The notes: generated from the sequence alone by a model not told the origin. A DNA stretch of 64,000 nt from Patescibacteria group bacterium (GCA_034659915.1 JAYEID010000002.1:2089-66088), one strand, 5' to 3'. Positions 26,502-59,041 are shown, counted from the first letter of the stretch. A program made the numbers and translations.

Positions 26502-27331
26502 TGCTTGTTAACAGTCTGGCTCGCACTGTAAATGAAAATCAAGATGAACCAAAAATATTTCTCCGCAATCTTTTAAAGGAGGTATTGCAGGGGTATACAT
26601 TAAATTTTATTTATACCTCTAATTACCAAGATGACTTTCTTTTTACGGGAGGGACTTGCCTGCGTTTTTGTTTTGGTTTGAACAGGCTTTCGGAAGATTT
26701 GGATTTGGATATAAAAAACGAAGATGATTTTGAACTTGATAAATTCTTAGTAGATTTGGGAGATTATTACCAGAAAGATTTGCAGTTCAAAGATTTGGAA
26801 ATAAAGACAGCGGGTAACGAAAGGCAGGTCTACCTTAAATTCCCTGTGCTGCGGGAGCTTGGTCTTGCAGAAGATGACAGTGAAAGCAATATTCTCTTTT
26901 TGCGATTGGATATTAACCCGTTACCTTCTTTGGTTTTTAGCGAGGATGTTTCTATGTATTCCAGTGCAGACTTTAGTTTTGTGATCAGGAGATATTCTTT
27001 GGAGGACATCTTTGCTTCCAAATTGGCGGCTATCCTCACACGCGAGTTTGAAAAGGGCGGGGGTTCGGCTACTTTCAAAGGAAGAGATTATTATGATTTA
27101 ATTTGGTTTTTGCAAAAAGACGTCGAACCTAACTACGAAAGGATAGAAGACCTTACGGAGTTTGACTCGCGAGAAGTTATTTTAAAGAATCTCGATGAAA
27201 AAGTGCAAGCCGTTAGTGAGCGTGCTTTGGAAGCGGATCTTTTGCCTCTTTTTGATAACCCGGATTTTGTAAAGGATTTTTCTCGTCAATTTAAAGAGCT
27301 TTATTCGGAGCTCCGCCCCCGTTTAGCTTAA
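26501..27331 (+). CDS. nucleotidyltransferase AbiEii/AbiGii toxin family protein (DUF1814)
   Basis: GGTCLRFCFGLNRLSEDLDLD matches the GGTAL...R.SeDlDf signature of AbiEii NTase toxins. Confidence 0.65.
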   Translation: MLVNSLARTVNENQDEPKIFLRNLLKEVLQGYTLNFIYTSNYQDDFLFTGGTCLRFCFGLNRLSEDLDLDIKNEDDFELDKFLVDLGDYYQKDLQFKDLEIKTAGNERQVYLKFPVLRELGLAEDDSESNILFLRLDINPLPSLVFSEDVSMYSSADFSFVIRRYSLEDIFASKLAAILTREFEKGGGSATFKGRDYYDLIWFLQKDVEPNYERIEDLTEFDSREVILKNLDEKVQAVSERALEADLLPLFDNPDFVKDFSRQFKELYSELRPRLA

Positions 27332-27401
27332 TTTTTTTTGTTATTTTCTATTCCTTATTTTCTATTTCCCATTTCCTATTGATTATGCTATAGTTACGGT
27401 A

Positions 27402-27968
27402 ATGAAGCGATTGCTGGCGGTGACATTTTTGGGGCTCTTTTTTGCTGGGGATGTGTATGCCGGGGAGATTTTGGAGGAGGCGGCGCGGGTTTCCGGGGAA
27501 TTTGGCCGTAAAGATATTAAGCTGGCGGAAGAAGCCCAGGCGGGGGGGATTTATAAACTTCCGTCCATTTCAGTAAAAAATACAGGAACCAACGAAGAAC
27601 GGTTCCAGGTTGACATTGTCTTTTTGGGTAGTGAGGGAGAAGGCTCTGGTGTTTCCTGGCTTAATGTGGAACCTTGGCGAATCACGCTTGACGCGGGAGA
27701 GGAAGCGGATGTAAAGCTGGGGCTAAAAGTTCCTGCCGGGGCGCGGGCAGGGGAATATAATTATCACTTAGAACTTAGGCGGGTATTGGAAGACGGCAAG
27801 GCGCACCCCAATCCGATGGATACTGCCGATATTCGGTTTAATGTGGAGGAGGGAAGTTTTTTTTCTGCAGTGAAGAGGAGGGTATCTTCTTACTTTAGTG
27901 CTAACCCAACGATGAGTCTTGTGGTTGCAGGGATTTTAATAGTTATTGCCATTAGTTTTCTTTGGTAA
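27402..27968 (+). CDS. secreted protein with signal peptide and C-terminal TM anchor, function unknown
   Basis: MKRLLAVTFLGLFFAGDVYA signal-like N-terminus. C-terminal hydrophobic segment MSLVVAGILIVIAISFLW. Confidence 0.45.
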   Translation: MKRLLAVTFLGLFFAGDVYAGEILEEAARVSGEFGRKDIKLAEEAQAGGIYKLPSISVKNTGTNEERFQVDIVFLGSEGEGSGVSWLNVEPWRITLDAGEEADVKLGLKVPAGARAGEYNYHLELRRVLEDGKAHPNPMDTADIRFNVEEGSFFSAVKRRVSSYFSANPTMSLVVAGILIVIAISFLW

Positions 27969-27969
27969 G

Positions 27970-28140
27970 ACGGTGTGGAAGATACTGGATAAGAAATAAG
28001 AAATAGGGAATAATGGATAATGAATAGGAAATAAGAGATAAGGAATAATAAATAAGGGATATAGGGAATAAGAAATAGGGGATAGGGAATACTAAATACT
28101 AGATACCAAATACTAAATACCAAATACTGAATACGATTTA
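27970..28140. repeat. purine-rich degenerate repeat block (GGAATAAG / AATACTAAATAC units), mirror of 2330-2660 block
   Basis: gataagaaataagaaatagggaataatggataatgaataggaaataagag... Similar blocks at 27335-27400 (CT-rich) and 28530-28610 (AG-rich). Confidence 0.6.
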
Positions 28141-28533
28141 ATGGTGAAATTTATAAAAATCATAAAGACAAAGATCAGAAGTTTGTTTGCGTTAATTAAG
28201 GGTAAGTTGGGGCCGTTTCGTTACTATCTTTTGGCATTTACAGCCCTCGGGATTTTTGTGGATACCTTCTTTTTTGACTTTACCTCTGATTTGGTTATTT
28301 TGTTTTTTATTTTTCTTTGGATTATGGCAAGCTGGCTTTTTTCTTTTGAAGGGAGGGTTTCGGTGGGGGTTGGCCTTGGGTTCTTGGTGCTTTGCCCCTT
28401 TCTTTTAATTTTTAAGGCGGATTTTATTGCAGAAAAGGCAGCTGTTTGGGCGTATATGTTTCTTTTGGTGGGTGTTGTACATGAAATCATTGAGTTTAGG
28501 GAGGAAAGAACGCAGGAAGCAAATACTAAATAG
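28141..28533 (+). CDS. small hypothetical membrane protein (130 aa)
   Basis: Three predicted TM helices. Embedded between repeat blocks. Weak. Confidence 0.3.
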   Translation: MVKFIKIIKTKIRSLFALIKGKLGPFRYYLLAFTALGIFVDTFFFDFTSDLVILFFIFLWIMASWLFSFEGRVSVGVGLGFLVLCPFLLIFKADFIAEKAAVWAYMFLLVGVVHEIIEFREERTQEANTK

Positions 28534-28639
28534 TAAATAGTAAATAATAAATAAGAAATAATGAATAAAAAATAGGGAATAATGGATAAGGAATAAGAAG
28601 ATACGTTGTTCCATTGTTCTAGGGCTCGATTGCTAGATA

Positions 28640-28922
28640 CAAACGTTAATGAACGCGAATACTACAAACACGAATCTACGCGAATCAAAAGCGAATAAAC
28701 GCGAATGTAGATTATTGGTGTACTAGTTAGCTGGGTATGAAAAGAAACCTAAGCTCCCGTCATTCTGGAACGGAGGTTGTCAAGGCGGAGTGATAGAATC
28801 TCGGCCCAAAGGGCCGGACGGGAGCGGATAAAAGGAAGACTCTATCAGGCTCGGGGGACCGAGCCTTCCAGAGTGACTGCCTTTTTGTACAAGTTACTAG
28901 TTACGAGTTGCCAGTTACTAAA
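28640..28922. repeat. intergenic composite: G-family ACGCGAAT repeats (28640-28710), hairpin-rich segment (28745-28885), H-family AGTTACTAGTTAC repeats (28888-28922)
   Basis: The same G and H repeat families recur inside CDS 29007..30950 (29826-30088, 30787-30822) and after genes at 25065-25105, 32642-32696 and 33388-33490. Confidence 0.55.
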
Positions 28923-29006
28923 TACTACATACTAAATATTAAATATTAAATATTAAATAGGGATATCAAGTAATGGGTTGCTAACTATTAACTACCAAAA
29001 AAACCA

Positions 29007-30950
29007 ATGACCTCGCAATTCAAAAAAACACTCCTTTTTATTATTATTTTTTCCTCGATTTTCCTTTTTTACTTTTCTCCGCTTGTGTTTAATGTATTTG
29101 GTTCAAGAACTTTGGGTTATTGGGGCGACAAGTTGGGGTTAATTGCCCGCTTGAGGGAAGGGCGCATCGGCTTTTTGAATCAACCTGCGTTACGCTTGAT
29201 GATTGGAATTCTTCGATCGGGTTTTTCTCCTTTTGGAGTTTATAATTTTTTGGTTCTTTTGAGTTTTCCTTTGACCTGCTTTTTTTCTTACCGGTTTTTC
29301 TGTAAAGTTCTGGGCAACGGAAAGACCCTTGAAAACAATAAGACCCGTCCTTCAGGAAAGGACGGGTCTTTCTATCTCTGTGGGGATGGGGGTTTCCTCT
29401 CTTTTCTCTCCTTTGTGCTAGCATTGATTTTTACTTTTTCCCCTTATCATATTTATAAAAGTTATAACCACGTTGACCTTGCGCAGATTTGGGTTTTTCC
29501 TCTTTTCTTTTCTGCGCTTTTGGATTTTGATTATGCAATTAGAAAACGTTTTTTGAGCAGTCATCCTGATCCCGACTTATCGGGAGAAGGATCTACTGCG
29601 AGGGACCTATACAGCAGGGGATTCTTCACCCCCGACAGGTCGGGGGTTCAGAATGACGAGGGAAATATTGTGCAAGCTACTTTGAGGCTTTCTGTTGTGA
29701 TGGCGGGGACGACGTTGATTTCTAATTATTATGGATACTTTACCTTGCTGATAATTGCGATATATTTCACTATTGAACTTTTACGAAATATTGAGAAATA
29801 TGTGCATAGATTTGAGTTATCAGCTACTGATTTACGCAGATTGATAACGGATTTACGCCGATTGTTGAAAACGAACGCTAATCAACGCGAATTGAAAACG
29901 AATATACGCGAATTGAAGAAGGATTTTCGCGGATGGATAGCTGATTTACGCCGATCAGAGGATTCACGTGGATTAATAGCTGATTCACACAGATCGGAAA
30001 ACGAAATGCCGAATGCGGATGGCGGAATGCGGATGGCGGAACGCGGTTTACAAATTACCAGTTACCTGTTACTAGTTGCAAGTTACGTTCTTTTCACCGT
30101 TCCTTTTTTGCTGCCCTATATACGCGGGATTTATTTTGGGGATACTGGTGGTGATGAAGTTGTAGCTCGGGTGGCAACTGGTGTTTCTCGGCGAGATGTG
30201 ACGGATTTTGTGGCTTTTTCCGCGCGGCCGTGGTATTACATTGTTCCCTCTATTGACCACCCTATTTTTGGCAACTTTGCTCAAGGTGTACACGACTGGT
30301 TTGAAAGCACGGGATACTTCCTTTTTGATGATTTTTTTTGGGAAGAACATTCGGCGGTCTATTTAGGAATAGTTAATTTAATTTTGACAGGTTACGCTAT
30401 ATATAAGTTATTCTGGGCAAAAAGAACCGCCGAATGCGGGGTAGAAAATAATGAATATGGAATAAGGAAAGAGGAGGAAATGGTAGATGATAAATTGCAA
30501 ATTTCGAACAATGAAAAAAATGGCAGGGGTACTAGTTACGATCCGCCAGCTGGCGGAACGAATTACATTTCTCTCTTTTTCTGGCTTGGGGTTGGTCTGT
30601 TCATTCTTTCCATGCCGCCGTTTATTTCGTTGGGTTTTGCAAAAATTTATTTACCTTCTTATCTTTTGATGAAGGTCTTTCCGATGTTTAGGACAATTTC
30701 TCGCTTGGGGCTTCCTTTGCTTCTTTGCGTTTTGGTTCTTACCGGCTACGGTTTACAGTTGTTGAAGGAGCGATTTTCTCTTTCTCGTACTAGTTACTTG
30801 TTACTAGTTACCAGTTATTGTTTCCTAGCGCTCTTCGAATTCTACTTCCCGCCGGTGATTAAAAAGGTTCCTCCCGGAGGGTGGCGAATTGATTTCGATA
30901 TTATTTCCGAAAATCCAGAGGTGCGTGAGGTGAATATTATTGAAGAGTAA
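29007..30950 (+). CDS. multi-pass membrane protein (GT-C-like) with a mosaic of in-frame repeat insertions
   Basis: TM-rich N- and C-terminal portions. The central segment is built from F-family hairpins (29568-29648), G-family 'gatttacgc/acgcgaat' repeats (ATDLRRLITDLRRLLKTNANQRELKTNIRELKK...), GCGGAATGCGGATGGCG repeats, H-family repeats, and a family-C hairpin at 29340-29372. Confidence 0.5.
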   Translation: MTSQFKKTLLFIIIFSSIFLFYFSPLVFNVFGSRTLGYWGDKLGLIARLREGRIGFLNQPALRLMIGILRSGFSPFGVYNFLVLLSFPLTCFFSYRFFCKVLGNGKTLENNKTRPSGKDGSFYLCGDGGFLSFLSFVLALIFTFSPYHIYKSYNHVDLAQIWVFPLFFSALLDFDYAIRKRFLSSHPDPDLSGEGSTARDLYSRGFFTPDRSGVQNDEGNIVQATLRLSVVMAGTTLISNYYGYFTLLIIAIYFTIELLRNIEKYVHRFELSATDLRRLITDLRRLLKTNANQRELKTNIRELKKDFRGWIADLRRSEDSRGLIADSHRSENEMPNADGGMRMAERGLQITSYLLLVASYVLFTVPFLLPYIRGIYFGDTGGDEVVARVATGVSRRDVTDFVAFSARPWYYIVPSIDHPIFGNFAQGVHDWFESTGYFLFDDFFWEEHSAVYLGIVNLILTGYAIYKLFWAKRTAECGVENNEYGIRKEEEMVDDKLQISNNEKNGRGTSYDPPAGGTNYISLFFWLGVGLFILSMPPFISLGFAKIYLPSYLLMKVFPMFRTISRLGLPLLLCVLVLTGYGLQLLKERFSLSRTSYLLLVTSYCFLALFEFYFPPVIKKVPPGGWRIDFDIISENPEVREVNIIEE

Positions 30951-38090: not shown

Positions 38091-38164
38091 AGCTGAGTAG
38101 CGAAGAATATATTGCCGGAGTTTTGGACGTTCGCGTCCCGGGCTCCGGCCTTTTTTTGCGATAT

Positions 38165-38198
38165 GAAAGGACGATATGAAAGGACGGGTCTTGCGAGC
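38165..38198. repeat. family-C half-site (GAAAGGACGggtcttgcgagc with local 13-bp duplication), right-hand inverted terminus flanking RAYT-1
   Basis: gaaaggacgatatgaaaggacgggtcttgcgagc. Its reverse complement matches 38883-38903 (gctcgcaagacccgtcctt). Confidence 0.75.
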
Positions 38199-38219
38199 TA
38201 CTGTTTTTATAGGAAAAAG

Positions 38220-38873
38220 TCAATCTAGCATTAAATATTTCAGATTGAGTTTTTCTGGTTCGGTTATTGGGGCTTCTGTGAATTTCTTGTATTCTACGTT
38301 TTTTGGTTCTGGGAGTTGGTCCAGTGTAGGATTGGTATTGATTAGGTTGTTGGGTTCATTGCCAATGTAAATGTGATAGCTGGACCACGGGTAATCTTCT
38401 GGGTTTCTAACTATGCCGGATTGACACGGGTTAAGATGAATATATCTGGAGAGGTTTAGTAAATCTGCATCGTCTGCTACCTCGCGTGCTTTAAATCTTC
38501 CTTGAAAAAGGGACCCGACACGCTCATATTTTTGATTGAAGTACATTACATAAGTGGTGCCAATTGTTCTCATAAAGTTACTTATGCTTTTTTCTTGGTC
38601 TAGTTGTTTGAGGATAAAGTGGAAGTGGTTGGGCATAAGTGTGTAAGCAATTAGACTAACTTTTTCTCTAAATTTGCCCAAGTTGGAAAGTCCCATCCTT
38701 GCGGAAAGGACGGGACTTTCCTTTCCCTTTTCTCTTAATATTAAATAGTATCGGAGTATGTTTGTGAAGTTTTTATAATCGGCGTAATCTACAAAAATTG
38801 TACGCTTTTCAACTCCGCGGTTGTAAATGTGGTAGTAGCCACCTTTGTGGAAAATAGTTTTTCGATAAGGCAT
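38220..38873 (-). CDS. REP-associated tyrosine transposase (RAYT; IS200/IS605-like HUH Y1 transposase)
   Basis: GYYHIYNRGVEKRTIF (TnpA_REP N-motif), HUH motif MPNHFHFIL, and C-terminal RYIHLNPCQSGIVRNPEDYPWSSY (catalytic Tyr plus NP...WSSY). It contains its own family-C hairpin at 38686-38722. Confidence 0.8.
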   Translation of the reverse strand: MPYRKTIFHKGGYYHIYNRGVEKRTIFVDYADYKNFTNILRYYLILREKGKESPVLSARMGLSNLGKFREKVSLIAYTLMPNHFHFILKQLDQEKSISNFMRTIGTTYVMYFNQKYERVGSLFQGRFKAREVADDADLLNLSRYIHLNPCQSGIVRNPEDYPWSSYHIYIGNEPNNLINTNPTLDQLPEPKNVEYKKFTEAPITEPEKLNLKYLMLD

Positions 38874-38882
38874 AAGATTAAG

Positions 38883-38918
38883 GCTCGCAAGACCCGTCCT
38901 TGCAAACGTCCTTGCAAA
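38883..38918. repeat. family-C half-site (gctcgcaagacccgtcctt plus duplicated cgtccttgcaa), left-hand inverted terminus flanking RAYT-1
   Basis: gctcgcaagacccgtccttgcaaacgtccttgcaa. Inverted relative to 38165-38198. Confidence 0.75.
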
Positions 38919-38921
38919 ATA

Positions 38922-41036
38922 CTATTCGCAGAGCGTTTTGCCGTTTGGGTATGTACTTTCTTTCCCGTAGATTTTGGTTATTGGGTGGTTAGCGATGAAG
39001 TATGTTTTTAGTTCTATGTAGCTATCCAGAGTTTTGTCTAGACTTTCGTAGTACCAGCTGATAGGAGCCTCGACTATAATTATATTATCTGCGTCTTTTT
39101 CAAAAACGTTTTCTTGGTCTGCAATTGGTTCTTTTCCAAGGTAAAAAGCGGGAATGCGAGCCTTCTCGTTGGTACTGTAGCTCCCTGTTAAACAACCGTT
39201 TTTGTAAAGCTTTGCTATCTTTTCCCAACCACGTCTGTGTGGGAAACCAAAGATTCCTTGGACTTTGTTGGCAAGATTTTTGTCAATACTAATCATTTCT
39301 CGACCAAAAACTTTTTTACTTCCCCACATATATTCGGGTCTTTTTTCGACGAAGATTTTGTGGTTGTAGGTTAGCGTTGTAGTAGTAATATAGATACCGA
39401 CTAATACTGTAATAAGTTGGACTGCCCGCCCAATTCCCCAGAACCAGGTTCTGGGACCGGTCTTAGAACCTGATTCTTTTCCTTGGCCAGCTCTAGACTT
39501 TGCGTTGAGAAGGGAAAAGGTTTTCGCAATCGTATAACCTGAAAGGATAAACAAGGGGATAAAGATAATATAAACATGGGTGCGGGGAGTTTTGTTGAAG
39601 AACAAGTAAAAACAAGAAGAAGCTAGAAACCAGGCAAAAAGGCTGGCTTTGATTTTATCAATTTTTGGGGTAAAGAAAAGAACGCCAAGGGTAATTAGGG
39701 TTAAAGTGTAAAACATTAAAGTGGATCCGCGCGGTTTGATCCATTGGGTAGAAAACCAGAAGGTGAAAATTAAGGTAACAGGTAATAGGTAATAGGTGAT
39801 AGGGATTAGTTTGCGGAAGGCGGAGAGCGGTGTGCGGAAAGCGGATGTATTTTTGAGAAGAGGGAATTGAGAATTGCGAATGATGAAATATAGAGAAAGG
39901 CAAGAAAGAATTACCAACGCAAAAATCATCTCTTTCGGCATATAGAATTTCATAAGAATTTTGCTATAAAGGGTGCGGGGCATGAAACCACTCCCTAGGA
40001 CTCTTCTTTGCAAATAGTTTGAGGTTTCTCCGGCGGTGGAGTTTAGAAAAAAGGGAACGTAGAAACTTGCTGTTAGAATTAGAAAAGGTGTGAAGAAGGC
40101 TAGGGCTTTCTTTTTCCAAAATCCAAGCTTTATAGAATTGCAGTCATTCTGAGGTCTCCCGGGCTGCTGGGAGGCCGAAGAATCCTCTGCTGTATGCTGC
40201 GTGCTTTGTTGTAGGTGGTCTTTAGTCGCGGGGGATTCTTCGTCGTTTGGAGACTCACTCCTCAGAATGACACGGGATATTAGATCTTTTCCGAAATAGA
40301 AGCAAATAAAGGCAAGGAAGGTTAGCGCGTCGTAGTGGGCGAGTACTGCAATTCCGAAGAGTAATCCGGCTAAACAAAAGTAGCCGCATTCCCCAGCCCC
40401 TGGGGCTGCAGTCAAAGAAGCCCCAGGGGCTTCTCCTGCGGCGGCCGGGGAATCGCCCGGCTTTGATTTTATATTTGCAATTCCAAACAACGATCCTGCT
40501 AGTGGAAGCTGCCCAATTCCCCAGAACCAGGTTCTGGGACCGGTCTTAGAACCTGGTTCTTTTCCTTGGCCAGCCTTTTTGTTCTCAACAGCAAGGAGAA
40601 ATAAGATAATTAAACCAAGTAACAACTGCACAAAGGCTTGGTATTGGGTAATCCTTGAAAAAGCAATGAACAGACCGTTAGTTCCTGCTAGTGCTGCACT
40701 AAGTATGCCTGCCCAATTGTTTTTTGTGAGCTTTCGTGTAACTTCGAAAAGTACATAGACAAAGGCAATACCAGCAAGGGCGTAAGGCAGGCGAATTATC
40801 CATTCTTCCCAGGTACCTGTTAAGTTATATGTCAACCAATTGATAACAAATTGTAAAGGGCCTTTATCGCGGCTCAGGAGGTATTGAATAAAGCTGCCCT
40901 GAAAGTAACGGAAGTCTAGAGTAAGAATTTCGTCACCTTGGTATTCCGCGTATCCTAAATCCTGCAACCGAACCCAGGCGGAGTAGGCGAGCGTGATGAT
41001 AAGTGTTATCTTTTGTGTTAGTTTTAGTTTTTTCAT
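38922..41036 (-). CDS. multi-pass membrane protein (GT-C-like) carrying two family-B and one family-A in-frame inserts
   Basis: TM-rich throughout. The peptide AGQGKESGSKTGPRTWFWGIG occurs twice, encoded by family-B elements at 39431-39490 and 40514-40573. AAAGEAPGASLTAAPGAGECG is encoded by a family-A element at 40384-40444. Confidence 0.5.
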   Translation of the reverse strand: MKKLKLTQKITLIITLAYSAWVRLQDLGYAEYQGDEILTLDFRYFQGSFIQYLLSRDKGPLQFVINWLTYNLTGTWEEWIIRLPYALAGIAFVYVLFEVTRKLTKNNWAGILSAALAGTNGLFIAFSRITQYQAFVQLLLGLIILFLLAVENKKAGQGKEPGSKTGPRTWFWGIGQLPLAGSLFGIANIKSKPGDSPAAAGEAPGASLTAAPGAGECGYFCLAGLLFGIAVLAHYDALTFLAFICFYFGKDLISRVILRSESPNDEESPATKDHLQQSTQHTAEDSSASQQPGRPQNDCNSIKLGFWKKKALAFFTPFLILTASFYVPFFLNSTAGETSNYLQRRVLGSGFMPRTLYSKILMKFYMPKEMIFALVILSCLSLYFIIRNSQFPLLKNTSAFRTPLSAFRKLIPITYYLLPVTLIFTFWFSTQWIKPRGSTLMFYTLTLITLGVLFFTPKIDKIKASLFAWFLASSCFYLFFNKTPRTHVYIIFIPLFILSGYTIAKTFSLLNAKSRAGQGKESGSKTGPRTWFWGIGRAVQLITVLVGIYITTTTLTYNHKIFVEKRPEYMWGSKKVFGREMISIDKNLANKVQGIFGFPHRRGWEKIAKLYKNGCLTGSYSTNEKARIPAFYLGKEPIADQENVFEKDADNIIIVEAPISWYYESLDKTLDSYIELKTYFIANHPITKIYGKESTYPNGKTLCE
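39431..39490. repeat. family-B palindromic element (CCAGGTTCTGGGACCGGTCTTAGAACCTG), in-frame in CDS 38922..41036
   Basis: caattccccagaaccaggttctgggaccggtcttagaacctgattcttttccttggccag. Copies at 40514-40573 (same gene) and 55030-55090 (plus-strand gene). Confidence 0.8.
40384..40444. repeat. family-A element in-frame in CDS 38922..41036
   Basis: ccgcattccccagcccctggggctgcagtcaaagaagccccaggggcttctcctgcggcgg. Confidence 0.85.
40514..40573. repeat. family-B element, second copy in same CDS
   Basis: caattccccagaaccaggttctgggaccggtcttagaacctggttcttttccttggccag. Confidence 0.8.
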
Positions 41037-41589: not shown

Positions 41590-41775
41590 TTTCTTCCTTT
41601 TCGAGCGATTCTTGGAGCGAGAAATCACAATAAAAGGATTTATTCCTATTTTGATTTCTCAGAGTATTTCGAAATGGGTGATAGGTTTATTTCCCTTTTC
41701 GAGTGATTCTTAGAGCGAGAAATCACAAAAGAAAGATTTTTCCTATTTTGATTTCTCGGCAGACCTCGAAATGGA
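41590..41775. repeat. two further tandem copies of the ~100-bp repeat flanking the GIY-YIG gene
   Basis: ttccttttcgagcgattcttggagcgagaaatcacaataaaaggatttattcctattttgatttctc / tttcccttttcgagtgattcttagagcgagaaatcacaaaagaaagatttttcctattttgatttctc. Confidence 0.7.
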
Positions 41776-43167
41776 TCTGTTGCCCTGAAAAGTTTCTAGA
41801 TAAGTTTCTGCAACAGCTTCCCACCTATAACCCTTCGCCATTTCTTTCGCATTTTCTGCTAAGTTTCTGCGTAATTCTGCATTCTTTTCTAATCTTATCA
41901 TCTCTTCCGCGAGTTCCTCGGCGTTTTTAGTTTCGAAGAGAAGTGCGGTTTTTCCATCTTCAAGTATTTCGGCGAGGCCCCCAGTCTTAGAGGCAATTAT
42001 TGGTTTACCTGCTGCTGCTAACTCTAAGGCAACAATGCCGAAGGGTTCTCTGTACGAGGGGATAATTGTAAAGTTTGCGTTTTGTATGTATTGAAGCAGT
42101 TCGATCCCTGATTTGAATCCCACAAAGCTGATTTTTTCCTCTAGGTTTTTTACTTTTACTAATTTTTCTAATTCTTTGCGGCTGGTACCGTCGCCGACAA
42201 TAACTAAATTACTGTTCAACTCGTCTTCTACTTTTGCGTAGGCTTTGATTAAGGTATCCACACCTTTTTTTGGTACTAGACGGCCGAGGTAAAGAATGTA
42301 GGGGGAAAGACTCGCCAATTTTTGAGGGTCGGCTAACTTCTCAACCGCCGCACCTGCCTGCCGGCAAGGCAGGTTCCCTAGCCTCTGGGGCTGCGGAAAA
42401 GAAGCCCCAGGGGCTTCTCCTGCGGCGGCGCAGGCACCTACTTGGGCTAAGGGGCAGCCGGTGCAGGATGATTTTGTGGGTGATAAGTCCCGTCCTTTTT
42501 GTAAGGACGGGACTTTACTTTTTAAAAGGTCTCCGATTTGGAAAAATTTTTGGTCAACACCGTTAGCAATTATTTCAATTTTCTTCTCGGCTTGGGGAAA
42601 GTTATTGGTAAGGTCTTCTTTTATGTATTCGGAGTTAACAATAATTTTTCTTGCGCGGTTAATTAGTTTTTTTAGGAAGAACCGGTACCACAGCTTTTTT
42701 CCAAAAACTTGTAGATCATTGCCGTGGATGTTGAGGATTAGAGGTGCAGGGTTGGGTGAGAATAGGTCGCCGCATTCCTCAGCCCCAGGGGCTGGGTCCG
42801 CAGAAGCCCCTGGGGCTTCTCCTGCGGCTAACGCTAACCAGACATAGACCGAGGAATCGTCCGGAAAGTGGTAGTTGACAATGTCCGGGTTATATTTAGA
42901 AACAAGTCGAACGAGATTGGTTAGACCGGTTAGGAAACGAAAGGGGAACGCAAGGAAACCCAGAAGTGATCGCGGTAAGTTTAACCAGACTCGTTGAACA
43001 TCTATGCCGTCCACTTGAGCTTTTTTCTCTTTTGCCTTACCCATTTGGGAAGCAATAACTAATACTTCATGACCCTTTGCTTTAAATTCTTTTGCCAGAT
43101 TTAAAACAACATTTTCGACCCCTCCAGTAAAAGGAAAAAATCTGGAAGAAATTAAAAGTATTTTCAT
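41743..43167 (-). CDS. glycosyltransferase family 4 (GT-B) carrying two family-A inserts and one family-C insert
   Basis: MKILLISSRFFPFTGGVENVV N-terminus; C-terminal EPFGIVALELAAAGKPIIASKTGG (E-x7-E). Inserts are translated as LAAGEAPGASADPAPGAEECGDL (42769-42828), GACAAAGEAPGASFPQPQRLGNLPCRQAGAAV (42354-42428) and KVPSLQKGRDLSP (42485-42517). Confidence 0.8.
   Translation of the reverse strand: MKILLISSRFFPFTGGVENVVLNLAKEFKAKGHEVLVIASQMGKAKEKKAQVDGIDVQRVWLNLPRSLLGFLAFPFRFLTGLTNLVRLVSKYNPDIVNYHFPDDSSVYVWLALAAGEAPGASADPAPGAEECGDLFSPNPAPLILNIHGNDLQVFGKKLWYRFFLKKLINRARKIIVNSEYIKEDLTNNFPQAEKKIEIIANGVDQKFFQIGDLLKSKVPSLQKGRDLSPTKSSCTGCPLAQVGACAAAGEAPGASFPQPQRLGNLPCRQAGAAVEKLADPQKLASLSPYILYLGRLVPKKGVDTLIKAYAKVEDELNSNLVIVGDGTSRKELEKLVKVKNLEEKISFVGFKSGIELLQYIQNANFTIIPSYREPFGIVALELAAAGKPIIASKTGGLAEILEDGKTALLFETKNAEELAEEMIRLEKNAELRRNLAENAKEMAKGYRWEAVAETYLETFQGNRSISRSAEKSK
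42354..42428. repeat. composite family-D hairpin plus family-A element, in-frame in GT4 gene
   Basis: ctgcctgccggcaaggcaggttccctagcctctggggctgcggaaaagaagccccaggggcttctcctgcggcgg. Confidence 0.8.
42485..42517. repeat. family-C full hairpin (AAGTCCCGTCCTTtttgtAAGGACGGGACTT), in-frame in GT4 gene
   Basis: aagtcccgtcctttttgtaaggacgggacttta. Near-identical copies at 63758-63791, 55603-55642 and 38686-38722. Confidence 0.85.
42769..42828. repeat. family-A element in-frame in GT4 gene
   Basis: gccgcattcctcagccccaggggctgggtccgcagaagcccctggggcttctcctgcggc. Confidence 0.85.
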
Positions 43168-43203: not shown

Positions 43204-45036
43204 TTGTGCTTTAATAGAGGTGTGAAGATAAAGAAGCTCTGGCGTGAAATTTCTATTTTTCTTTTCTCTGTTTTTTTGCGCTTGCCAAAGCTTGGCACGG
43301 GAATTTTCAACGCAGATGCTTTTCGTTGGAAAGCGCGTTCCTATAATTTTTGTAGTGGTTTGTTTGGTTTAGACTTTGCACAAACTGTCCAGTCTTCGCA
43401 TCCTGGGGTTACGCTGATGTGGATTGGAACTGTGGGGATAAAAGTGTACAACGCATTTAACAGTTTATTTCGCGGTTCTTTACCTAGCGGAGATCAGCAA
43501 GTATTTGAATTGCACTTTGTGCAGAAGTTTTTTGTTGTGTTGGTATTTGCCGCTCTTTTTAGTTTTGCTTTTTACCTTTTGCGGAGATTGACAAACACTA
43601 CCATTGCTTTTTTTGCTGTGCTGCTTTTAACTTTTGAACCTCATTTTTTGGCTCACACTAGGATTTTTCATCTTGATGGGCTACTTTCCATGTTTATGTT
43701 TGTTTCTGTGTTGGCACTCCTGTGCTATTTCGAGTTTTCGGGGAATCAAAATAGGGAGGTCAGCGGCGGTGATGAAGGCCAGCCAATTCCTCAACTCCGG
43801 AGGTTAAATCGAACTGCCGCATTCCCAAGCCCCAGGGGCTTCTGCGGACCTAGCCCCTGGGGCTTTCCATGCAGCGGTTTTCCCTTGCTAGTGTGTTTGA
43901 TGCTTTCCGCGGTGTTTGCTGGCCTGGCTTTGCTTACTAAAAGCACCGCCTTATTTCTTATTCCTTTTGTGGGTCTGTTTGTGTTATTGGAATTATTTTT
44001 AAAAAGGGTTCGTCCAGCCGCCTCTCTAATCTCCGAGGTTAAATCCGCAGAAACCTTGGAGGTTTTCCCGGCGGCCTCTTTGTGGAAGGAATATTTTTTG
44101 TCATTTGGGATTTGGATTTTGGTGCTTGCGGCAACTTTCACTGCTTTTTGGCCGGTAATGTGGGTGCAGCCTCTAAAAACTCTTCAACTTTATTATTCTG
44201 GTATTACTTTGGAAGGATTTGGCGGGCACGGAAACTACTTTTTTGGTCAACGGACTACAGATCCTGGACCCTTGTTTTATTTAATGAGCTTGTGGATTCG
44301 GTTGTCACCGTGGCTTTTGGTTCTGGTTGTTTATGAGGTTTTTTCTTGTACTGCAAAAACTCTAAGGTCTTTATGTCAAAAAGAAAAGTTGGGAGTTGTT
44401 TTAAAAAAGAAGGGTTTGACAGTGGCTTTTTCTCTTTTTGTCATTCTTTTTTACATTTTTATATCTGTTCCTTCCAAAAAGCTAGAAAGATATTCTTTGC
44501 CTTTGTACCCAGCCTTGGCTGTATTGGGTGGCGTTGGCCTGTATAATGCCAAGAAAATCTTGGTTGTTTGGCTGAAAAGGTTTGAACTCGGATTTTCAAA
44601 TCTCAAACAGGTTTTGATTTCTAGATTTAATGTAGTAGTGGCATTGTTGCTTTTTGTAGCCTTTATGGGTTCTACTCGAGGGTTGTTTCCGGATTATTTA
44701 GCTTACCGCTCGCCTTTGGCTGAGGGTTTGGAAGGTACTGTGGGTATAATACAGCCTGATTGGGTGTTTGGCGCTTCTCGAGTAGGTGAATTTTTTAATA
44801 GCTTGGAATTGGAAAAAACTCCTGTTGTTTATACTTTTAATCCTGGGCAGTTTCGACTATTTTTGCCTGGATATGTACGAGATACGCAAGATGTGGAAGG
44901 GCTGAGCACCGCAGACTTTATTATTCTTCCTGTTTGGTCGGAGCGTAATTTGGAAATAGATCCTGAGCTTTTTGATCTTGTTGAGGTGATAGAGGTTAAC
45001 AACACTCCTGTATATAATATTTACCAGGCGCGCTGA
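43204..45036 (+). CDS. GT-C-like membrane protein (HPGVTLMWIG paralog family) with a family-A insert read in an alternative frame
   Basis: FRWKARSYNF...HPGVTLMWIGTVG matches the 33572/35145 paralogs. The family-A element at 43817-43877 is translated here as RTAAFPSPRGFCGPSPWGFPCSG rather than the GEAPGAS-type peptide. Start codon is uncertain. Confidence 0.5.
   Translation: MCFNRGVKIKKLWREISIFLFSVFLRLPKLGTGIFNADAFRWKARSYNFCSGLFGLDFAQTVQSSHPGVTLMWIGTVGIKVYNAFNSLFRGSLPSGDQQVFELHFVQKFFVVLVFAALFSFAFYLLRRLTNTTIAFFAVLLLTFEPHFLAHTRIFHLDGLLSMFMFVSVLALLCYFEFSGNQNREVSGGDEGQPIPQLRRLNRTAAFPSPRGFCGPSPWGFPCSGFPLLVCLMLSAVFAGLALLTKSTALFLIPFVGLFVLLELFLKRVRPAASLISEVKSAETLEVFPAASLWKEYFLSFGIWILVLAATFTAFWPVMWVQPLKTLQLYYSGITLEGFGGHGNYFFGQRTTDPGPLFYLMSLWIRLSPWLLVLVVYEVFSCTAKTLRSLCQKEKLGVVLKKKGLTVAFSLFVILFYIFISVPSKKLERYSLPLYPALAVLGGVGLYNAKKILVVWLKRFELGFSNLKQVLISRFNVVVALLLFVAFMGSTRGLFPDYLAYRSPLAEGLEGTVGIIQPDWVFGASRVGEFFNSLELEKTPVVYTFNPGQFRLFLPGYVRDTQDVEGLSTADFIILPVWSERNLEIDPELFDLVEVIEVNNTPVYNIYQAR
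43817..43877. repeat. family-A element (variant arrangement) inside CDS 43204..45036
   Basis: ccgcattcccaagccccaggggcttctgcggacctagcccctggggctttccatgcagcgg. Confidence 0.8.
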
Positions 45037-50898: not shown

Positions 50899-52773
50899 AT
50901 GCTTAAGAAAATAAAAATAGACAGACTTCTTTTAGTCATTTTTGTTCTTGCTCTTATTCTTCGTCTTTTCGGTATCTGGCACGGTTGGCCGTTTATTTAT
51001 AATATAGATGAACCAGCTTTGGTTCGGAGTGCTATTGGGATTCGTTTTAATCCTAATCCTGGACATTTTGACTGGCCTCATTTGCATTTTTATCTTTCTT
51101 TTGGTGTTTTAGCTTTTTTTTACCTAGTTCGCGGTTTTTTTCAGATTGTGGGTTTGCAACTTCTTTTGATGCAGATAATCCCGTTCTTTTGGAAAGACCC
51201 CGCAATCTATTACTTGATTGTGCGTGTTTTTAATGCGCTTCTTGGTGCGCTGACTATTGTTCCTGTGTATCTTACAGGGAGGGTTTTGTTTGTAGGGGAG
51301 GAGGTTGTCGCAGGAGAAGCCCCTGGGGCTTCTGCAGACCCAGCCCCTGGGGCTGAGGAATGCGGCGGGGGAGATTTGGCGGGCCGTCAATCCAGCTCTC
51401 GCAAGGACGGGTCTTTCCTAGGCCGTTGGTTCGGTGATTTTAGTAATATAGCTTCTTTGCTTTCTGCTTTGGCGTTTGCGGTCTTTCCACTCCATGTAAG
51501 AGATTCTCACTTGGCAACAGTTGATGTTCCTATGGTGTTTTGGCTTGCTTGGTCCATGTATTTTGCGGCGAAAGTTTTAAAAAGTTCTGCTTGGCGCAAT
51601 TATATTTTTGCTGGAATATTTGCAGGGTTGGCTGCTTCAACTAAGTATAACGGTGTCTTTATTTTGTTAGTTATTGTTTTGGCACACTGTTTGCAAATTT
51701 GGTTAAAAAGCCAGGGAGAAGAAACAAAGTTTGTTGCGACTTTTTTCTCAAAGAAGCTTTTGAAAGTTTTTGTTTCTGGGCTCTCTGCTCTACTTGTTTT
51801 CTTTCTTGGTACTCCTTACATTCTTTTTGATTTTAAAACCTTTTGGTCTTATGAGTATGGGCGGGGTTTTCTTTGGTTGTTAGAAGAAACTGGTAGTGTT
51901 TCCAGCTGGGCGGAGTATTTTGCCAATTTTAAATATTTAAGTTCTTTACCTAAGGATCTTTCTTGGACCCTTTATTTAATAGTCCTTTTTTCAATTGGTG
52001 AGTTTTTATGTTTACTACTTAAAAAGATTATTAAGATAGAATTTAAATTACCTGTCAGAATGAATGTTTGCAAGGACGGGTCTTGCCAAAGTGCTTTTTC
52101 ATGGCAATTAGCGAGACTTGCTTTTTTGCTCTTCTTTCCTGTTTTTTATTGTTTATTTGTTATGCGGGGGAAGAAGTTTAATCCTCACTATTTCTTAGCG
52201 GTATACCCGTTTCTTGCATTGGTAGTGGGAAGATTTACAGCAAAAATCGGTCGTTTTGCTAGTTATTTATGGAATTCGGCAGAAGTACCAAGCACCAGAT
52301 CACAAAATCTAAATAAATCTCAAGTTTCAAAACGACAGATCAAAAATAGGGGCGGCGAAGGTGGGACATTTGGGATTTCCGCGCGTAGCGTACTCTTTGC
52401 ACTTATCTTGTTTGTTTTTGTAGTTCCTTTGTATCGCTCTTTTTACACTGGGTTGGTATATTCACGTGTAGATACGAGAACGCAAGCTAGTCAATGGGTA
52501 GGTGAAAATGTTTCGCTGGGATCTAGGGTTGCAATTGTAGGAACAGAAACTATTGAATTAACTGTAGAAGGTGTAAAGTATAAGACATACAAAAAGCTTA
52601 GTATTTTGGATAAGTTTGGGCAATACGATTTTGTGCTTGTTACTAATGAAAAACAAGATTATATGCTGGAAAAAATGGCTGATAATGGTTTTGAATTAGT
52701 TCAGGAGTATAGTAACGAAAAACCAACTCGCCGCGGTCCTTATGTTTGGATTTTTAAAAATATACAAGAGTGA
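50899..52773 (+). CDS. GT39/ArnT-PMT-like glycosyltransferase (GT-C) with family-A and family-C in-frame inserts
   Basis: YNIDEPALVRSAIG (DE loop-1 motif of ArnT/PMT enzymes) and many TM helices. The insert VVAGEAPGASADPAPGAEECGGGDLAGRQSSSRKDGSFLGRW is encoded by 51308-51368 plus 51399-51417. A second family-C-derived CKDGSC lies at 52069-52088. Confidence 0.6.
   Translation: MLKKIKIDRLLLVIFVLALILRLFGIWHGWPFIYNIDEPALVRSAIGIRFNPNPGHFDWPHLHFYLSFGVLAFFYLVRGFFQIVGLQLLLMQIIPFFWKDPAIYYLIVRVFNALLGALTIVPVYLTGRVLFVGEEVVAGEAPGASADPAPGAEECGGGDLAGRQSSSRKDGSFLGRWFGDFSNIASLLSALAFAVFPLHVRDSHLATVDVPMVFWLAWSMYFAAKVLKSSAWRNYIFAGIFAGLAASTKYNGVFILLVIVLAHCLQIWLKSQGEETKFVATFFSKKLLKVFVSGLSALLVFFLGTPYILFDFKTFWSYEYGRGFLWLLEETGSVSSWAEYFANFKYLSSLPKDLSWTLYLIVLFSIGEFLCLLLKKIIKIEFKLPVRMNVCKDGSCQSAFSWQLARLAFLLFFPVFYCLFVMRGKKFNPHYFLAVYPFLALVVGRFTAKIGRFASYLWNSAEVPSTRSQNLNKSQVSKRQIKNRGGEGGTFGISARSVLFALILFVFVVPLYRSFYTGLVYSRVDTRTQASQWVGENVSLGSRVAIVGTETIELTVEGVKYKTYKKLSILDKFGQYDFVLVTNEKQDYMLEKMADNGFELVQEYSNEKPTRRGPYVWIFKNIQE
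51308..51368. repeat. family-A element (canonical 'forward' copy) in-frame in GT39-like gene
   Basis: tcgcaggagaagcccctggggcttctgcagacccagcccctggggctgaggaatgcggcggg. Confidence 0.85.
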
Positions 52774-54828: not shown

Positions 54829-56178
54829 ATGAAAATTATTTTTCTTTCTAACCAACTCTTCGACTACCCTTTAAAGACCAACAAATGGCACGTGGCTACC
54901 CGGGTGGCTGAGCGGGGGCATCGAGTTCTTTTTATTGATCCTCCAATTCGTTTTCGCAAAGTAATAAAACAAATTTTCCAAGGGCGTTGGGGTTTGGGAA
55001 GGTTACTTTCAGGGTTTTACGCTCCGGTCGGCAATTCCCCAAAGCCAGGTTCTGGGACTGGTCTTAGAACCTGGCTTTTGTCCTTGCCGATCGCTACTTT
55101 AAAAGTCTTTACCCCTCTGACCTCTGTGCCTTCCGAATCACCAAACCTTACTCGTTTCAACGTTAACCGAATGAAAAGGAGGGTTCCGGAATTTTTTGAT
55201 GGCGAAGCTATCCTTTGGGTTTATAATCCAGCAATGATTGAGTATATTGAGAAGATACCACACAAGTTATTGGTCTATGATTGTGTGGATGATTATCCTT
55301 CTATGGCTAATTACCAGCGGCTGGGGCTTTCTGATGAGATTGCGAAGAAGGAGGAGCAGATTGCGAGCCGTGCTGACCTTATTTTTGCAACAACTAAAAA
55401 TTTGGCGGAGAAGCTCCGGCAGCGGAATGACAACGTTTATTACGTGGGAAATGCGGGAGACTATGCACGCTTTGCCCCTGCGGCTAAAGCGGAAATTATA
55501 ACCCGCCAGCCCGCTTCACCGAATCGAGGCGAGCCGGCGGACAAATTTCAAATTTCAAATGAAGGAGAAGAAAGAAGAACCGGCGAGGAAAAGTTGCCAA
55601 AGGAAAGTCCCGTCCTTGCGGCTCAAAGGACGGGATTTTCCGGAGTACCAAAACCAATTATCGGCTTTACCGGAGCAATTGACGATTACAAAGTGAACCT
55701 CCCTCTTCTTGTTCGAGTTGCTAAGGACCATCCGGAAAAATCTTTAGTTTTGGTAGGACCAACTGGAGTAGCGGGCGACCAGCCTGATCTTTGTGACCTT
55801 AAAGGACTTGAAAATGTTTATTTTATTGGCGAACGTCCGTATGAAGAAATGCCCGCGTTTTTTGCCCGGTTTGATGTTTACATTATTCCCTATAATCTAA
55901 ACGACTATACGGTAAAGGGTTGTTTTCCGGTTAAGTTTTTGGATGCTTTGGCGGCTGGATTGCCCACTGTGGTTACCAATCTCCCTGCCTACGAAGATTT
56001 TGCTGACGTTTCTTATATTGCTGGAGATGACGAGGAGTTTGGTAAGTTGATTCAAAAAGCATTAGACGAAAATTCCAAGGAGAAAGTAGAGAAGCGTATG
56101 CGCATTGCTCGTCAAAATTCATGGAACAATAAGGTGGAAAAAATGCTTCAGATTGTTACTTCAAAGCTTTCTTCGTAG
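54829..56178 (+). CDS. GT-B-fold glycosyltransferase (GT1/GT4-like) with family-B and family-C in-frame inserts
   Basis: C-terminal half ...LVLVGPTGVAGDQ...FDVYIIPYNLNDYTVKGCFPVKFLDALAAGLPTVVTNL is GT-B-like. GNSPKPGSGTGLRTWLLSLP comes from the family-B element at 55030-55090. PKESPVLAAQRTGFSG comes from the family-C hairpin at 55603-55642. Confidence 0.55.
   Translation: MKIIFLSNQLFDYPLKTNKWHVATRVAERGHRVLFIDPPIRFRKVIKQIFQGRWGLGRLLSGFYAPVGNSPKPGSGTGLRTWLLSLPIATLKVFTPLTSVPSESPNLTRFNVNRMKRRVPEFFDGEAILWVYNPAMIEYIEKIPHKLLVYDCVDDYPSMANYQRLGLSDEIAKKEEQIASRADLIFATTKNLAEKLRQRNDNVYYVGNAGDYARFAPAAKAEIITRQPASPNRGEPADKFQISNEGEERRTGEEKLPKESPVLAAQRTGFSGVPKPIIGFTGAIDDYKVNLPLLVRVAKDHPEKSLVLVGPTGVAGDQPDLCDLKGLENVYFIGERPYEEMPAFFARFDVYIIPYNLNDYTVKGCFPVKFLDALAAGLPTVVTNLPAYEDFADVSYIAGDDEEFGKLIQKALDENSKEKVEKRMRIARQNSWNNKVEKMLQIVTSKLSS
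55030..55090. repeat. family-B element in-frame in plus-strand GT gene
   Basis: gcaattccccaaagccaggttctgggactggtcttagaacctggcttttgtccttgccg. Same DNA orientation as the two copies that are translated on the minus strand in CDS 38922..41036. Confidence 0.8.
55603..55642. repeat. family-C full hairpin in-frame in GT gene
   Basis: gaaagtcccgtccttgcggctcaaaggacgggattttcc. Confidence 0.8.
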
Positions 56179-58152: not shown

Positions 58153-58180
58153 ATCTAGAGGCTGCCTCTAGATAAGGTTG
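58153..58180. repeat. family-E 28-bp palindromic element (ATCTAGAGGCTGCCTCTAGATAAGGTTG), 3'-flank of RAYT-2
   Basis: TCTAGAGGC/GCCTCTAGA is a perfect 9-bp inverted repeat. An identical copy at 59012-59041 lies in direct orientation on the other side of the gene. Confidence 0.85.
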
Positions 58181-58183
58181 TTT

Positions 58184-58960
58184 TTACAGTGTGTTCTTGA
58201 ATTGTTCTCGTAAATGCTTTTTGTAAGCCTTTTTTTGAGATCTGAACTTTTGGAACCAACCAAAATCATCATCTAAGGCTACTGTTTCTAGACGTAGAGG
58301 CTCAAATTCGTCGACTTCAGCCATGACAAATTCCAAGTATTCTCTAGGGGACTTAAACAAGCTAGTTACAACTTGGGGGTTAATAAAATTGCCATAATTT
58401 TCTTCTAGGTATGTAGATAAGCTAGACCACGGGTACTCAACTAGTTTATTTTTGCTTTCCAGCCTGAGCTTACGTGGGTTAATGTGTTGATATCGAGTTA
58501 GATGTACCAACTGTTCATTTGATTCTATTAGAACACTTTTGTAAGGTCCTTCAAACAACCGGCCAGTTCTTTCTAGTCTAATATTAAAGTAGTTAGTGTA
58601 TGCAACGCCAATTTTGTGCATGAAAAAAGAAATACCATCTTTTACTCGCTGTTTAAGTGTAATGTGGTAATGATTAGGCATTAAGCAAAAGGAAATTATG
58701 TCTACTGGAGGCTTGATTCGTTTTTGTTCTAAGTGTTTTAGAATTGTCTGTTTGCTGGGCTCTGTTTGTGACTGTTTAAGTCGTTTTAGTAGGGTACTGT
58801 AAGGATAATCGTATTTTAAGTAATGCTTAAGGAGGAAAATAAAACGTTTGTAGTAACTGGGGTCAGGAAATGTTTCGCGCTTTTCTACTCCTCGGTTGTA
58901 TATGTGGTAGATTCTCCCTGTTCTTAAAGGGTTTCTATCCATCGAGTTAATGATACTCAA
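58184..58960 (-). CDS. REP-associated tyrosine transposase (RAYT-2; IS200-like HUH Y1 transposase)
   Basis: GRIYHIYNRGVEKRETF, HUH motif MPNHYHITL, C-terminal RYQHINPRKLRL...EYPWSS. About 35-40% identical to RAYT-1 by eye. Confidence 0.8.
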   Translation of the reverse strand: MSIINSMDRNPLRTGRIYHIYNRGVEKRETFPDPSYYKRFIFLLKHYLKYDYPYSTLLKRLKQSQTEPSKQTILKHLEQKRIKPPVDIISFCLMPNHYHITLKQRVKDGISFFMHKIGVAYTNYFNIRLERTGRLFEGPYKSVLIESNEQLVHLTRYQHINPRKLRLESKNKLVEYPWSSLSTYLEENYGNFINPQVVTSLFKSPREYLEFVMAEVDEFEPLRLETVALDDDFGWFQKFRSQKKAYKKHLREQFKNTL

Positions 58961-59011: not shown

Positions 59012-59041
59012 ATATCTAGAGGCTGCCTCTAGATAAGGTTG
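59012..59041. repeat. family-E palindromic element, 5'-flank of RAYT-2
   Basis: gatatctagaggctgcctctagataaggttg. Confidence 0.85.

Follow-up and report, generated by a model that had tools for sequence, protein, structure and literature searches.

A RAYT-like gene of a Patescibacteria group bacterium and the short hairpin family that probably belongs to it

Does a single transposase gene of the RAYT type (REP-associated tyrosine transposase; REP, repetitive extragenic palindrome) belong together with a family of short hairpins that lies scattered through other genes of the same genome? This question is raised by RAYT-1, a gene in a 64,000-nucleotide (nt) stretch of DNA from a Patescibacteria group bacterium (GCA_034659915.1 JAYEID010000002.1:2089-66088), and by the repeat that brackets it, here called family C. 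The whole stretch is referred to as the window, and all window counts concern these 64 kb only. We consider it likely, with a probability of about 0.65, that positions 38160-38918 form a unit of the REPtron/TIRtron type, a vertically inherited Y1 HUH gene with its cognate recognition motif. The link of RAYT-1 to the repeat is well supported, because orthologous loci, co-variation across the whole family and the recurrence of each gene's own hairpin all point to it. That RAYT-1 also drives the spread of family C is what we infer from this association.

What kind of protein does the gene encode? The original prediction, made from the sequence alone, described a 217-residue HUH Y1 transposase with RAYT hallmarks, and this description is borne out.

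38220-38873, minus strand: RAYT-1, an intact open reading frame (ORF) for a 217-residue Y1 HUH transposase-like protein

The sole Pfam match of RAYT-1 is Y1_Tnp (PF01797; residues 70-146, 34.6 bits against a cut-off of 23). With this score above the gathering threshold, an HUH motif (N82-H83-F84-H85) and a single catalytic tyrosine in R143-Y144-I-H-L-N-P, the protein belongs to the Y1 HUH superfamily; it carries YPWSSY at the C-terminus, and N82, H83, F84, H85 and Y144 are invariant among 18 aligned homologs. The AlphaFold model (predicted local distance difference test, pLDDT, 87.8) retrieves with Foldseek the E. coli TnpA-REP structure 4ER8 as best match (E = 3.4e-8, target-normalised TM-score 0.70), followed by TnpA proteins of IS200/IS605 (E ~2.5e-4). 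A profile of RAYT-1 homologs run against solved structures likewise places 4ER8 first, then ISDra2 TnpA. By fold, RAYT-1 is closer to the REP-associated enzyme than to the IS200 transposases. Its motif set, NHFH / FQ / YIHLNP / SS, fits subclass 2.1 in Table 1 of PMC6006769, and we regard RAYT-1 as a probable member of the RAYT/TnpA-REP superfamily that fits Quentin subclass 2.1 (Bertels group 1), an assignment made from motifs only. An identical protein is recorded as "transposase" of a Patescibacteria metagenome-assembled genome, and an independent Logan assembly (L001) reproduces the locus with both flanks, the internal copy and the copy at 29340. One copy of RAYT-1 and one 37% identical paralog, RAYT-2, are present in the 64 kb, as expected of a low-copy, vertically inherited gene.

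Which sequences bracket this gene? A perfect 19-nt inverted repeat, AAGGACGGGTCTTGCGAGC, surrounds it; the repeat occurs exactly twice in the 64 kb (0 expected in shuffles), and the dispersed family-C hairpins have its 13-nt core as their arm. Both ends furthermore carry a tandem duplication, read from the sequence.

38160-38172 and 38173-38185: two tandem copies of GATATGAAAGGAC, which overlap the downstream motif in its outer half
38180-38198, plus strand: downstream flank motif (monomer), 21 nt past the stop codon, forming one arm of the 19-nt inverted repeat
38883-38901, minus strand: upstream flank motif (monomer), the other arm, ending 9 nt before the ATG
38895-38906 and 38907-38918: two tandem copies of CGTCCTTGCAAA, which overlap the upstream motif in its outer half

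The predicted duplications at the two termini are thus both present in the sequence. The inverted repeat had been expected as well and is real, although the proposed downstream span, 38165-38198, takes in the duplication and has to be shortened to 38180-38198. The comparison of the bracketed gene with a REPIN (REP doublet forming hairpin) we replace by that with a REPtron/TIRtron-type unit, the REPIN-like objects being the dispersed inverted dimers described below. At both ends the duplication boundaries lie in mirror positions, at the centre of the 13-nt core between AAGGAC and GGGTCTT. In the orthologous locus L004, a 9-nt tandem duplication (TTCCTAAGC x2, ~2300-2325) abuts the downstream motif. 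The mirrored boundaries, taken together with the duplication in L004, might mark a point of breaking and rejoining. As RNA (38907-38883, minus strand), the upstream motif folds into a stem of 10 pairs, G-U pairs included, which lies between the stop codon of the neighbouring PMT_2 gene and the start of RAYT-1, and a simple scan marked this stem as terminator-like.

Is the flanking motif also dispersed? With the arm AAGGACGGGACTT and at most two mismatches, the window holds 15 matches against 1.5 expected (0/100 shuffles reach 15), 11 of them with at most one mismatch. The match at 36637 is a weak two-mismatch one and probably a chance occurrence; the remaining matches make up five perfect or near-perfect inverted dimers, two single units and the two flanks of the gene. 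The motif spans ~13-19 nt with the core AAGGACGG, which has 13 matches against 0.94 expected in the window (14-fold). Hence, the repeat that flanks RAYT-1 is itself over-represented in the window, as is characteristic of RAYT/TnpA-REP genes. Apart from the flanks, the copies are:

29340-29372: family-C dimer, T variant, in frame in a 647-residue ORF (29007-30950), encoding KTRPSGKDGSF
38686-38722: family-C dimer inside the RAYT-1 coding sequence, residues 51-63 (KESPVLSARMGLS), folding at -16.3 kcal/mol (z = -4.5)
42485-42517: family-C dimer in frame in a GT4 glycosyltransferase gene (41743-43167, minus strand), encoding SKVPSLQKGRDL; not in the L002 ortholog
51399-51417, plus strand: family-C monomer in frame in a PMT_2 gene (50899-52773), encoding SRKDGSF
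52069-52088, plus strand: family-C monomer in the same PMT_2 gene (50899-52773), encoding CKDGSC
55603-55642: family-C dimer with an 8-nt loop, in frame in a glycosyltransferase gene (54829-56178), encoding ESPVLAAQRTGFSG
63758-63791: family-C dimer, in frame in a GT4-like ORF cut off by the window end, encoding QVPSFSQGRDFQ

The dimers measure 31-40 nt, with stems of 13-16 bp and loops of 4-8 nt, and all five fold as single-stranded DNA at -15 to -18 kcal/mol (z -4.4 to -6.8). Five of the nine sites are therefore inverted pairs with a 4-8-nt spacer that form one hairpin, which is the REPIN arrangement in a much shorter format than described; REPINs are usually ~70-110 nt long. The complete in-frame hairpins foreseen at 29340, 42485, 55603 and 63758 were indeed found in ORFs and fold significantly. 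Of the peptides quoted for them, SRKDGSF is encoded at 51399, and the copy at 42485 reads KVPSLQKGRDL and not KVPSLRKGRDL. The single arms at 51399-51417 and 52069-52088, neither of which folds significantly alone as single-stranded DNA, exist as predicted; since the flank unit of relatives is a complete small hairpin, they are better called monomers than half-copies, and the "complete hairpins" inverted dimers. The 5' side of the 51399 monomer, GCTCTCGCAAGG, matches the upstream flank of L002, and the 52069 monomer has 21 nt, GTTTGCAAGGACGGGTCTTGC, in common with the upstream flank of RAYT-1.

All six dispersed copies and the internal copy are read through in ORFs, using all three phases, and a check by eye showed that the arms lack stop codons in all six frames. 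The extragenic location of canonical REPs is thus found for none of these copies. No Rfam family matches the window at gathering thresholds. We also considered the CGTC-tagged REPs, which carry an unpaired terminal CGTC, an 8-9-bp stem whose first pairs are A-T, and a CCA tail (Di Nocera 2013), and rejected membership: in family C the CGTC lies inside the stem or loop (CCCGTCCTT) instead of standing unpaired at the end, and the CCA tail is missing.

Did these copies insert into existing genes? For the GT4 gene the answer is plain. The copy at 42485, the only dispersed copy compared with an ortholog, coincides with a clean gap in the alignment with the L002 ortholog and is an insertion. So does every element of two further repeat families, A and B, in the GT4 and PMT_2 genes. 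GT4 has 474 residues in the window against 369 in L002, and PMT_2 704 against 612; families A, B and C together add 92-105 residues to these two cell-envelope glycosylation enzymes. The L004 ortholog of PMT_2 lacks the insertions of the window and has its own family-C dimer at a different site. A decayed family-C copy at that site in the window PMT_2 was considered and rejected, as there is no DNA similarity.

Is the association conserved? Four orthologous loci encode proteins with 58% (L002 and L003), 67% (L004) and 49% (L005) identity to RAYT-1. L002, L003 and L004 keep the gene order GT4, PMT_2, RAYT, with the RAYT gene directly downstream of the same PMT_2, and L002-L005 retain the RAYT gene with its flank-repeat architecture through co-varying bases. 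The flanks of L002, L003 and L004 read AAGGACGGACCTT / AAGGTCCGTCCTT, their inverted relation being preserved through the changed bases; these loci carry CGCAAGGACGGACCTTGCG upstream and CGCAAGGTCCGTCCTT downstream, in which two bases differ on both sides in the same architecture, and the flank sequence of L005 is AAGGCCCGTCCTT. In L002 and L004 the flank unit is a small hairpin, CGCAAGG-ACGGA-CCTTGCG, whose stem measures 7 bp and whose 5-nt loop is asymmetric. Enrichment of the core AAGGACGG is seen there too (5 against 0.6 expected in L002, 7 against 0.08 in L004). L004 has two perfect family-C dimers inside neighbouring genes, whereas the 20,729-nt L002 segment has five small monomer hairpins of its own type and no family-C dimers. 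Dimers in L004 and the window and only monomers in L002 mean that the dimer load differs sharply between related lineages.

How specific is family C to this clade? With at most one mismatch, its arm occurs 5 times in 1.87 Mb of 160 other Patescibacteria loci and 6 times in the 3 kb of L004; per base, the family is ~80-fold rarer in these other loci. Equal abundance elsewhere, which would have spoken against a tie between repeat and enzyme, was thus not observed in these data. The proposal that a specific Y1 enzyme goes with family C stands, with the motif in both flanks, an internal copy, and conservation of the arrangement in L002-L005. Among the matches listed, a scan of species genomes for closer relatives gave at most 49% identity, and a metagenome scan found no relative above 50%, so that the close clade rests on L002-L005.

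The same data bear on another explanation of the locus, namely that 38180-38901 is itself a mobile insertion sequence (IS), either IS200/IS605-like or bounded by terminal inverted repeats (TIRs), of which the dispersed hairpins would be solo ends or derivatives of the miniature inverted-repeat transposable element (MITE) kind. The 19-nt terminal inverted repeat is indeed tight around a single transposase gene, both ends carry short duplications, and Bertels group 1 is the most IS-like RAYT group (PMC5581495). Yet the window contains one copy, whose sole paralog is 37% identical and has different ends, and L002, L003 and L004 hold the gene at the same chromosomal position even though protein identity has dropped to 58-67%. 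A tnpB gene is absent, and the tyrosine motif is YIHLNP, not the Y---Q of IS200; RAYT-1 thus shows neither the near-identical copies nor the Y---Q motif nor the frequent tnpB of IS200/IS605 elements. Moreover, the dimers are built as A-loop-A', opposite to what a simple internal deletion of A'-gene-A would leave. We therefore consider a mobile IS highly improbable.

Does the enzyme's own gene receive the repeat? The predicted copy inside the gene, at 38686-38722, is present, folds and encodes residues 51-63. It lies in the loop between the helix at residues 30-44 (helix alpha-A) and the strand at 72-79 (the HUH strand), where pLDDT averages 54 over residues 51-60 and these residues adopt no secondary structure; 51-63 is the only low-confidence, unstructured stretch of the model. 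The site is occupied in L004 and L005 and decayed in L002, although the gene there is intact. Furthermore, the internal copy carries the variant dispersed in its own genome, AGTCCC...GGGACT in the window and AGACCC...GGTCT in L004.

Is this pattern found across the family? Two independent sets of homologs with 33-50% identity were used, one from species genomes (at least 92 genes) and one from metagenome contigs (67 genes), and a flank repeat was taken as a repeat common to the 150 nt upstream and the 150 nt downstream with a score of at least 12. Such a repeat is present in 82 of 92 genes of the first set, among the matches listed, and in 60 of 67 of the second. The limit to the matches listed extends to the other homolog figures of this paragraph. 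In ~140 homologs the flank repeat takes, with few exceptions, the form of a short hairpin, and each genome has its own; the downstream copy has direct orientation in 76 loci and inverted orientation in 56. An exact 11-mer of the own flank repeat lies within the own ORF in 22/82 and 18/60 genes (~27-30%), whereas foreign flank repeats occur within ORFs in 24/6532 and 13/3462 comparisons (0.4%), so that the own hairpin is ~70-fold commoner. The internal copies concentrate at two places: residues ~50-74, ahead of the HUH strand, which is where the RAYT-1 dimer sits, and ~138-172, just after YIHLNP, with a recognisable copy in ~22% and ~15% of genes, respectively. The first linker is longer when it holds a copy (median 65 against 59 residues, p = 0.003; range 36-72). 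No fixed orientation of internal or flanking copies is seen, the internal ones being 15 same against 14 inverted and 13 against 7. Lengthening of the first linker and the lack of a preferred orientation favour repeated insertion at permissive places over a fixed functional element.

These two places invite a further explanation, in which flanks and intragenic copies are control elements that co-evolve with the protein, for instance because the enzyme binds its own gene or mRNA. In keeping with this, the places are fixed across very different hairpin sequences, the second linker has the same length with or without a recognisable copy, the upstream hairpin stands beside a TTGACA box in many loci, and the single mismatch of the RAYT-1 internal stem becomes a G-U pair on the mRNA strand. 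However, a control element would hardly be recognisable in only ~22% (first place) and ~15% (second place) of genes, in random orientation (again among the matches listed), nor would the first linker be expected to vary from 36 to 72 residues and to be longer when occupied, or the L002 copy to decay in an intact gene. Control by these elements is, in our view, quite unlikely.

Side observations on the homologs, also among the matches listed, are as follows. In loci L006-L165, TAGC(T) or TTAGCTTGACA stands just 5' of the flanking hairpin in ~30% of homologs; TAGC, with which 13 genes end, is found 4.9 times per kb upstream and 1.8 times per kb within ORFs. A TTGACA box between the upstream hairpin and the ATG occurs 57 times across 158 genes. 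The density of generic hairpins along the ORFs (stem of at least 6) is too close to chance.

How would such a system work? In the REPtron/TIRtron-type reading, the enzyme would bind the motif on single-stranded DNA, cut and rejoin there, and so copy non-autonomous elements in trans; catalysis, the point of cleavage, the direction of copying and action near the own gene all belong to this proposed model. The inverted dimers would be the REPIN-like, hairpin-forming and presumably mobile form. Copies would survive mainly as in-frame insertions in tolerant protein loops, because little of the genome is non-coding and the motif has no stops in six frames. The own gene would be hit most often, at two permissive places, of which that in RAYT-1 is a disordered loop.

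Several observations weigh against this reading. The canonical 5' tag GT[AG]G is missing: the original prediction had named the tetranucleotide typical of RAYT cleavage sites as a check, and no GTAG adjoins any dispersed family-C copy, the sole one near family C lying 3 nt from the downstream flank motif of RAYT-1. Nor is GTAG enriched in the flanks of ~158 homologs (2.1 per kb against 2.3 per kb in ORFs). RAYT-1 scores below the cut-off of the NCBIfam equivalog model NF047646, REP_Tyr_transpos (68.3 bits against 80), and only residues 69-164 are matched. The flank monomers of RAYT-1 do not fold alone as single-stranded DNA (z = -1.9 and +1.45), so that recognition of a hairpin would require dimers, or pairing between the two flanks. 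The second linker is not longer with a copy (14 residues against 13), an equality that simple insertion does not predict; the comparison of linker lengths at this place gave no difference and thus did not demonstrate simple insertion there. The tie between enzyme and repeat is, moreover, one of association. Finally, the hairpin of RAYT-2 has no other copy in the window and is not dispersed, and families A and B have spread in the same manner with no associated RAYT in the window. Within the 64 kb, a RAYT is therefore neither visibly necessary nor visibly sufficient for dispersal. The elements concerned are:

58184-58960, minus strand: RAYT-2, 37% identical to RAYT-1
58154-58172 and 59015-59033: two perfect direct copies of TCTAGAGGCTGCCTCTAGA, a hairpin that contains TAG, flanking RAYT-2
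2982-3304, 40384-40441, 42368-42425, 42770-42827, 43817-43874, 51309-51368, 61225-61284, 61768-61827 and 63529-63588: family A, ~58-nt units with two AGCCCCWGGGGCT palindromes each, 18 units in the window
39428-39491, 40511-40574 and 55029-55092: family B, 64-nt units with two AGAACCWGGTTCT palindromes

In GT4 and PMT_2, family A is in frame and gives peptides like GEAPGAS..APGAGE; family B encodes AGQGKEPGSKTGPRTWFWGIG twice in PMT_2, and both are absent from the L002 ortholog.

Could the repeats, then, have spread without RAYT-1, by template switching or slippage at palindromes, by gene conversion or by another enzyme, while the locus merely attracts or retains copies as regulatory or terminator hairpins? 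Families A and B entered the same genes with no RAYT in the window, the RAYT-2 hairpin stayed undispersed, perfect palindromic dimers and tandem duplications at the motif centre are what strand-switching is expected to produce, and the upstream motif resembles an RNA terminator. This explanation leaves three things unaccounted for: the genome-specific hairpins on both sides of ~140 homologs and the ~70-fold excess of the own hairpin inside the gene (both among the matches listed), and the core AAGGACGG kept beside orthologs of 49-67% identity. We regard spread independent of RAYT-1 as unlikely, though with an appreciable chance of being right.

A bolder proposal goes beyond the REPtron/TIRtron-type unit, and we put it forward as doubtful: in Patescibacteria, the RAYT-like enzymes may make up, together with their hairpins, a self-referential system, in which the hairpin at two fixed internal places and in the flanks would be a substrate for self-binding or self-cutting, as a working or a control part. 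Linked to this, cleavage would fall at the motif centre between AAGGAC and GGG, as the mirrored duplication boundaries suggest. If true, this cut site would differ from the cleavage geometry of IS200/IS605 and of E. coli TnpA-REP.

The remaining features of the window concern other subjects. AT-rich arrays of ATAAGGA / ATACTAA-type units, repeating every 7/14 nt, occupy spaces between ORFs on both strands:

2349-2640, 27325-27390, 27954-28150, 28495-28610 and 28888-28973: AT-rich arrays
~8-14 kb: low-GC island, GC 0.26-0.33
7500-7763 and 16628-16891: 3' ends of the plus-strand ORFs 5508-7763 and 14849-16891, with ~75% DNA identity, which makes them paralogs

Regardless of the direction of the genes, nearly all 2-kb bins show a positive GC skew (up to 0.35).

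Why does this locus matter? For the copying of REP-type repeats by domesticated transposases, the RAYT-1 lineage offers a compact case, with very small genomes, short and sharply defined units, clear differences in copy number (L002 against L004 and the window) and one enzyme subclass. In an almost fully coding genome, family-C copies remodel proteins by 7-14 residues each, a source of variation in protein length in Patescibacteria. The recurrence of the own hairpin within the gene across the family bears on whether such enzymes act preferentially near their own gene.

How does the system compare with known ones? REPtrons, TIRtrons and REPINs (PMC3116915, PMC3733652) and in-frame intragenic REPs (PMC3733652) have been described in other phyla; the literature searched held no paper on REP or RAYT in Patescibacteria or the candidate phyla radiation. 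With the REPtron (RAYT/TnpA-REP; Nunvar 2010, PMC2817692; Bertels & Rainey 2011, PMC3116915; Ton-Hoang 2012, PMC3333891; and 4ER8 in PMC3479197) our locus has in common a Y1 HUH gene that is present once, is inherited vertically and has on either side its own short repeat, which is over-represented, often as inverted pairs forming one long hairpin, and a repeat family of its own for each paralog (family C for RAYT-1, TCTAGAGGC... for RAYT-2). It differs in the absence of the GTAG tag, in a protein below the NCBIfam cut-off, in the Patescibacteria host, in units of 13-19 nt and dimers of 31-40 nt with a 4-8-nt spacer, and in dispersed copies that are all in genes and not between them.

Comparable, too, are the TIRtron/TIRYT genes (Di Nocera 2013, PMC3733652), for which Quentin 2018 (PMC6006769) gives TnpAY1 subclass 2.1 and Bertels group 1 as equivalents. 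They resemble RAYT-1 in NH[YF]H, FQ, Y[IV]HLNP and the SS tail, in a terminal inverted repeat rather than strong hairpins, and in repeats that can form moderately abundant families of singles, dimers and groups. In contrast to TIRYT/subclass 2.1, the RAYT-1 repeat lacks the GGGGWSAS motif, and Pfam detects no C-terminal helix-turn-helix-like domain (Bac_DnaA_C, HTH_23, HTH_28) in the protein. Quentin 2018 found no REP-like sequences for subclass 2.1 (PMC6006769), whereas the Patescibacteria relatives almost all have clear flanking hairpins, among the matches listed. REP insertions within tnpA-REP genes have been reported for subclass 2.4 (PMC6006769); there, too, the gene of the enzyme carries its cognate repeat as an in-frame insertion, placed in a variable region at the periphery, although RAYT-1 falls in another subclass and its family takes up insertions before the HuH motif and just after the Y motif.

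The Rickettsia palindromic elements and intragenic REPs (PMC3733652) are likewise short palindromes, single or in dimers, that lie in frame in unrelated genes and add 7-30 residues in tolerant regions. Their sequences are unrelated to family C, for which a cognate Y1 gene can be identified; the CGTC-tagged elements, including Rickettsia RPE-4 and RPE-6, have no associated transposase (PMC3733652). With IS200/IS605 elements (IS608, ISDra2), RAYT-1 shares fold and catalytic motifs, and the direct-orientation hairpins at RAYT-2 and many homologs recall IS200 ends; it differs in not being multicopy, in having no tnpB, in its syntenic position and in its class 2 Y motif (Y---NP). Altogether, every ingredient is known from elsewhere, and the RAYT-1 system stands apart by the absence of GTAG, its very short units, copies that are all intragenic, membership in a subclass reported without REPs, the places of insertion within the enzyme's gene, and its host.

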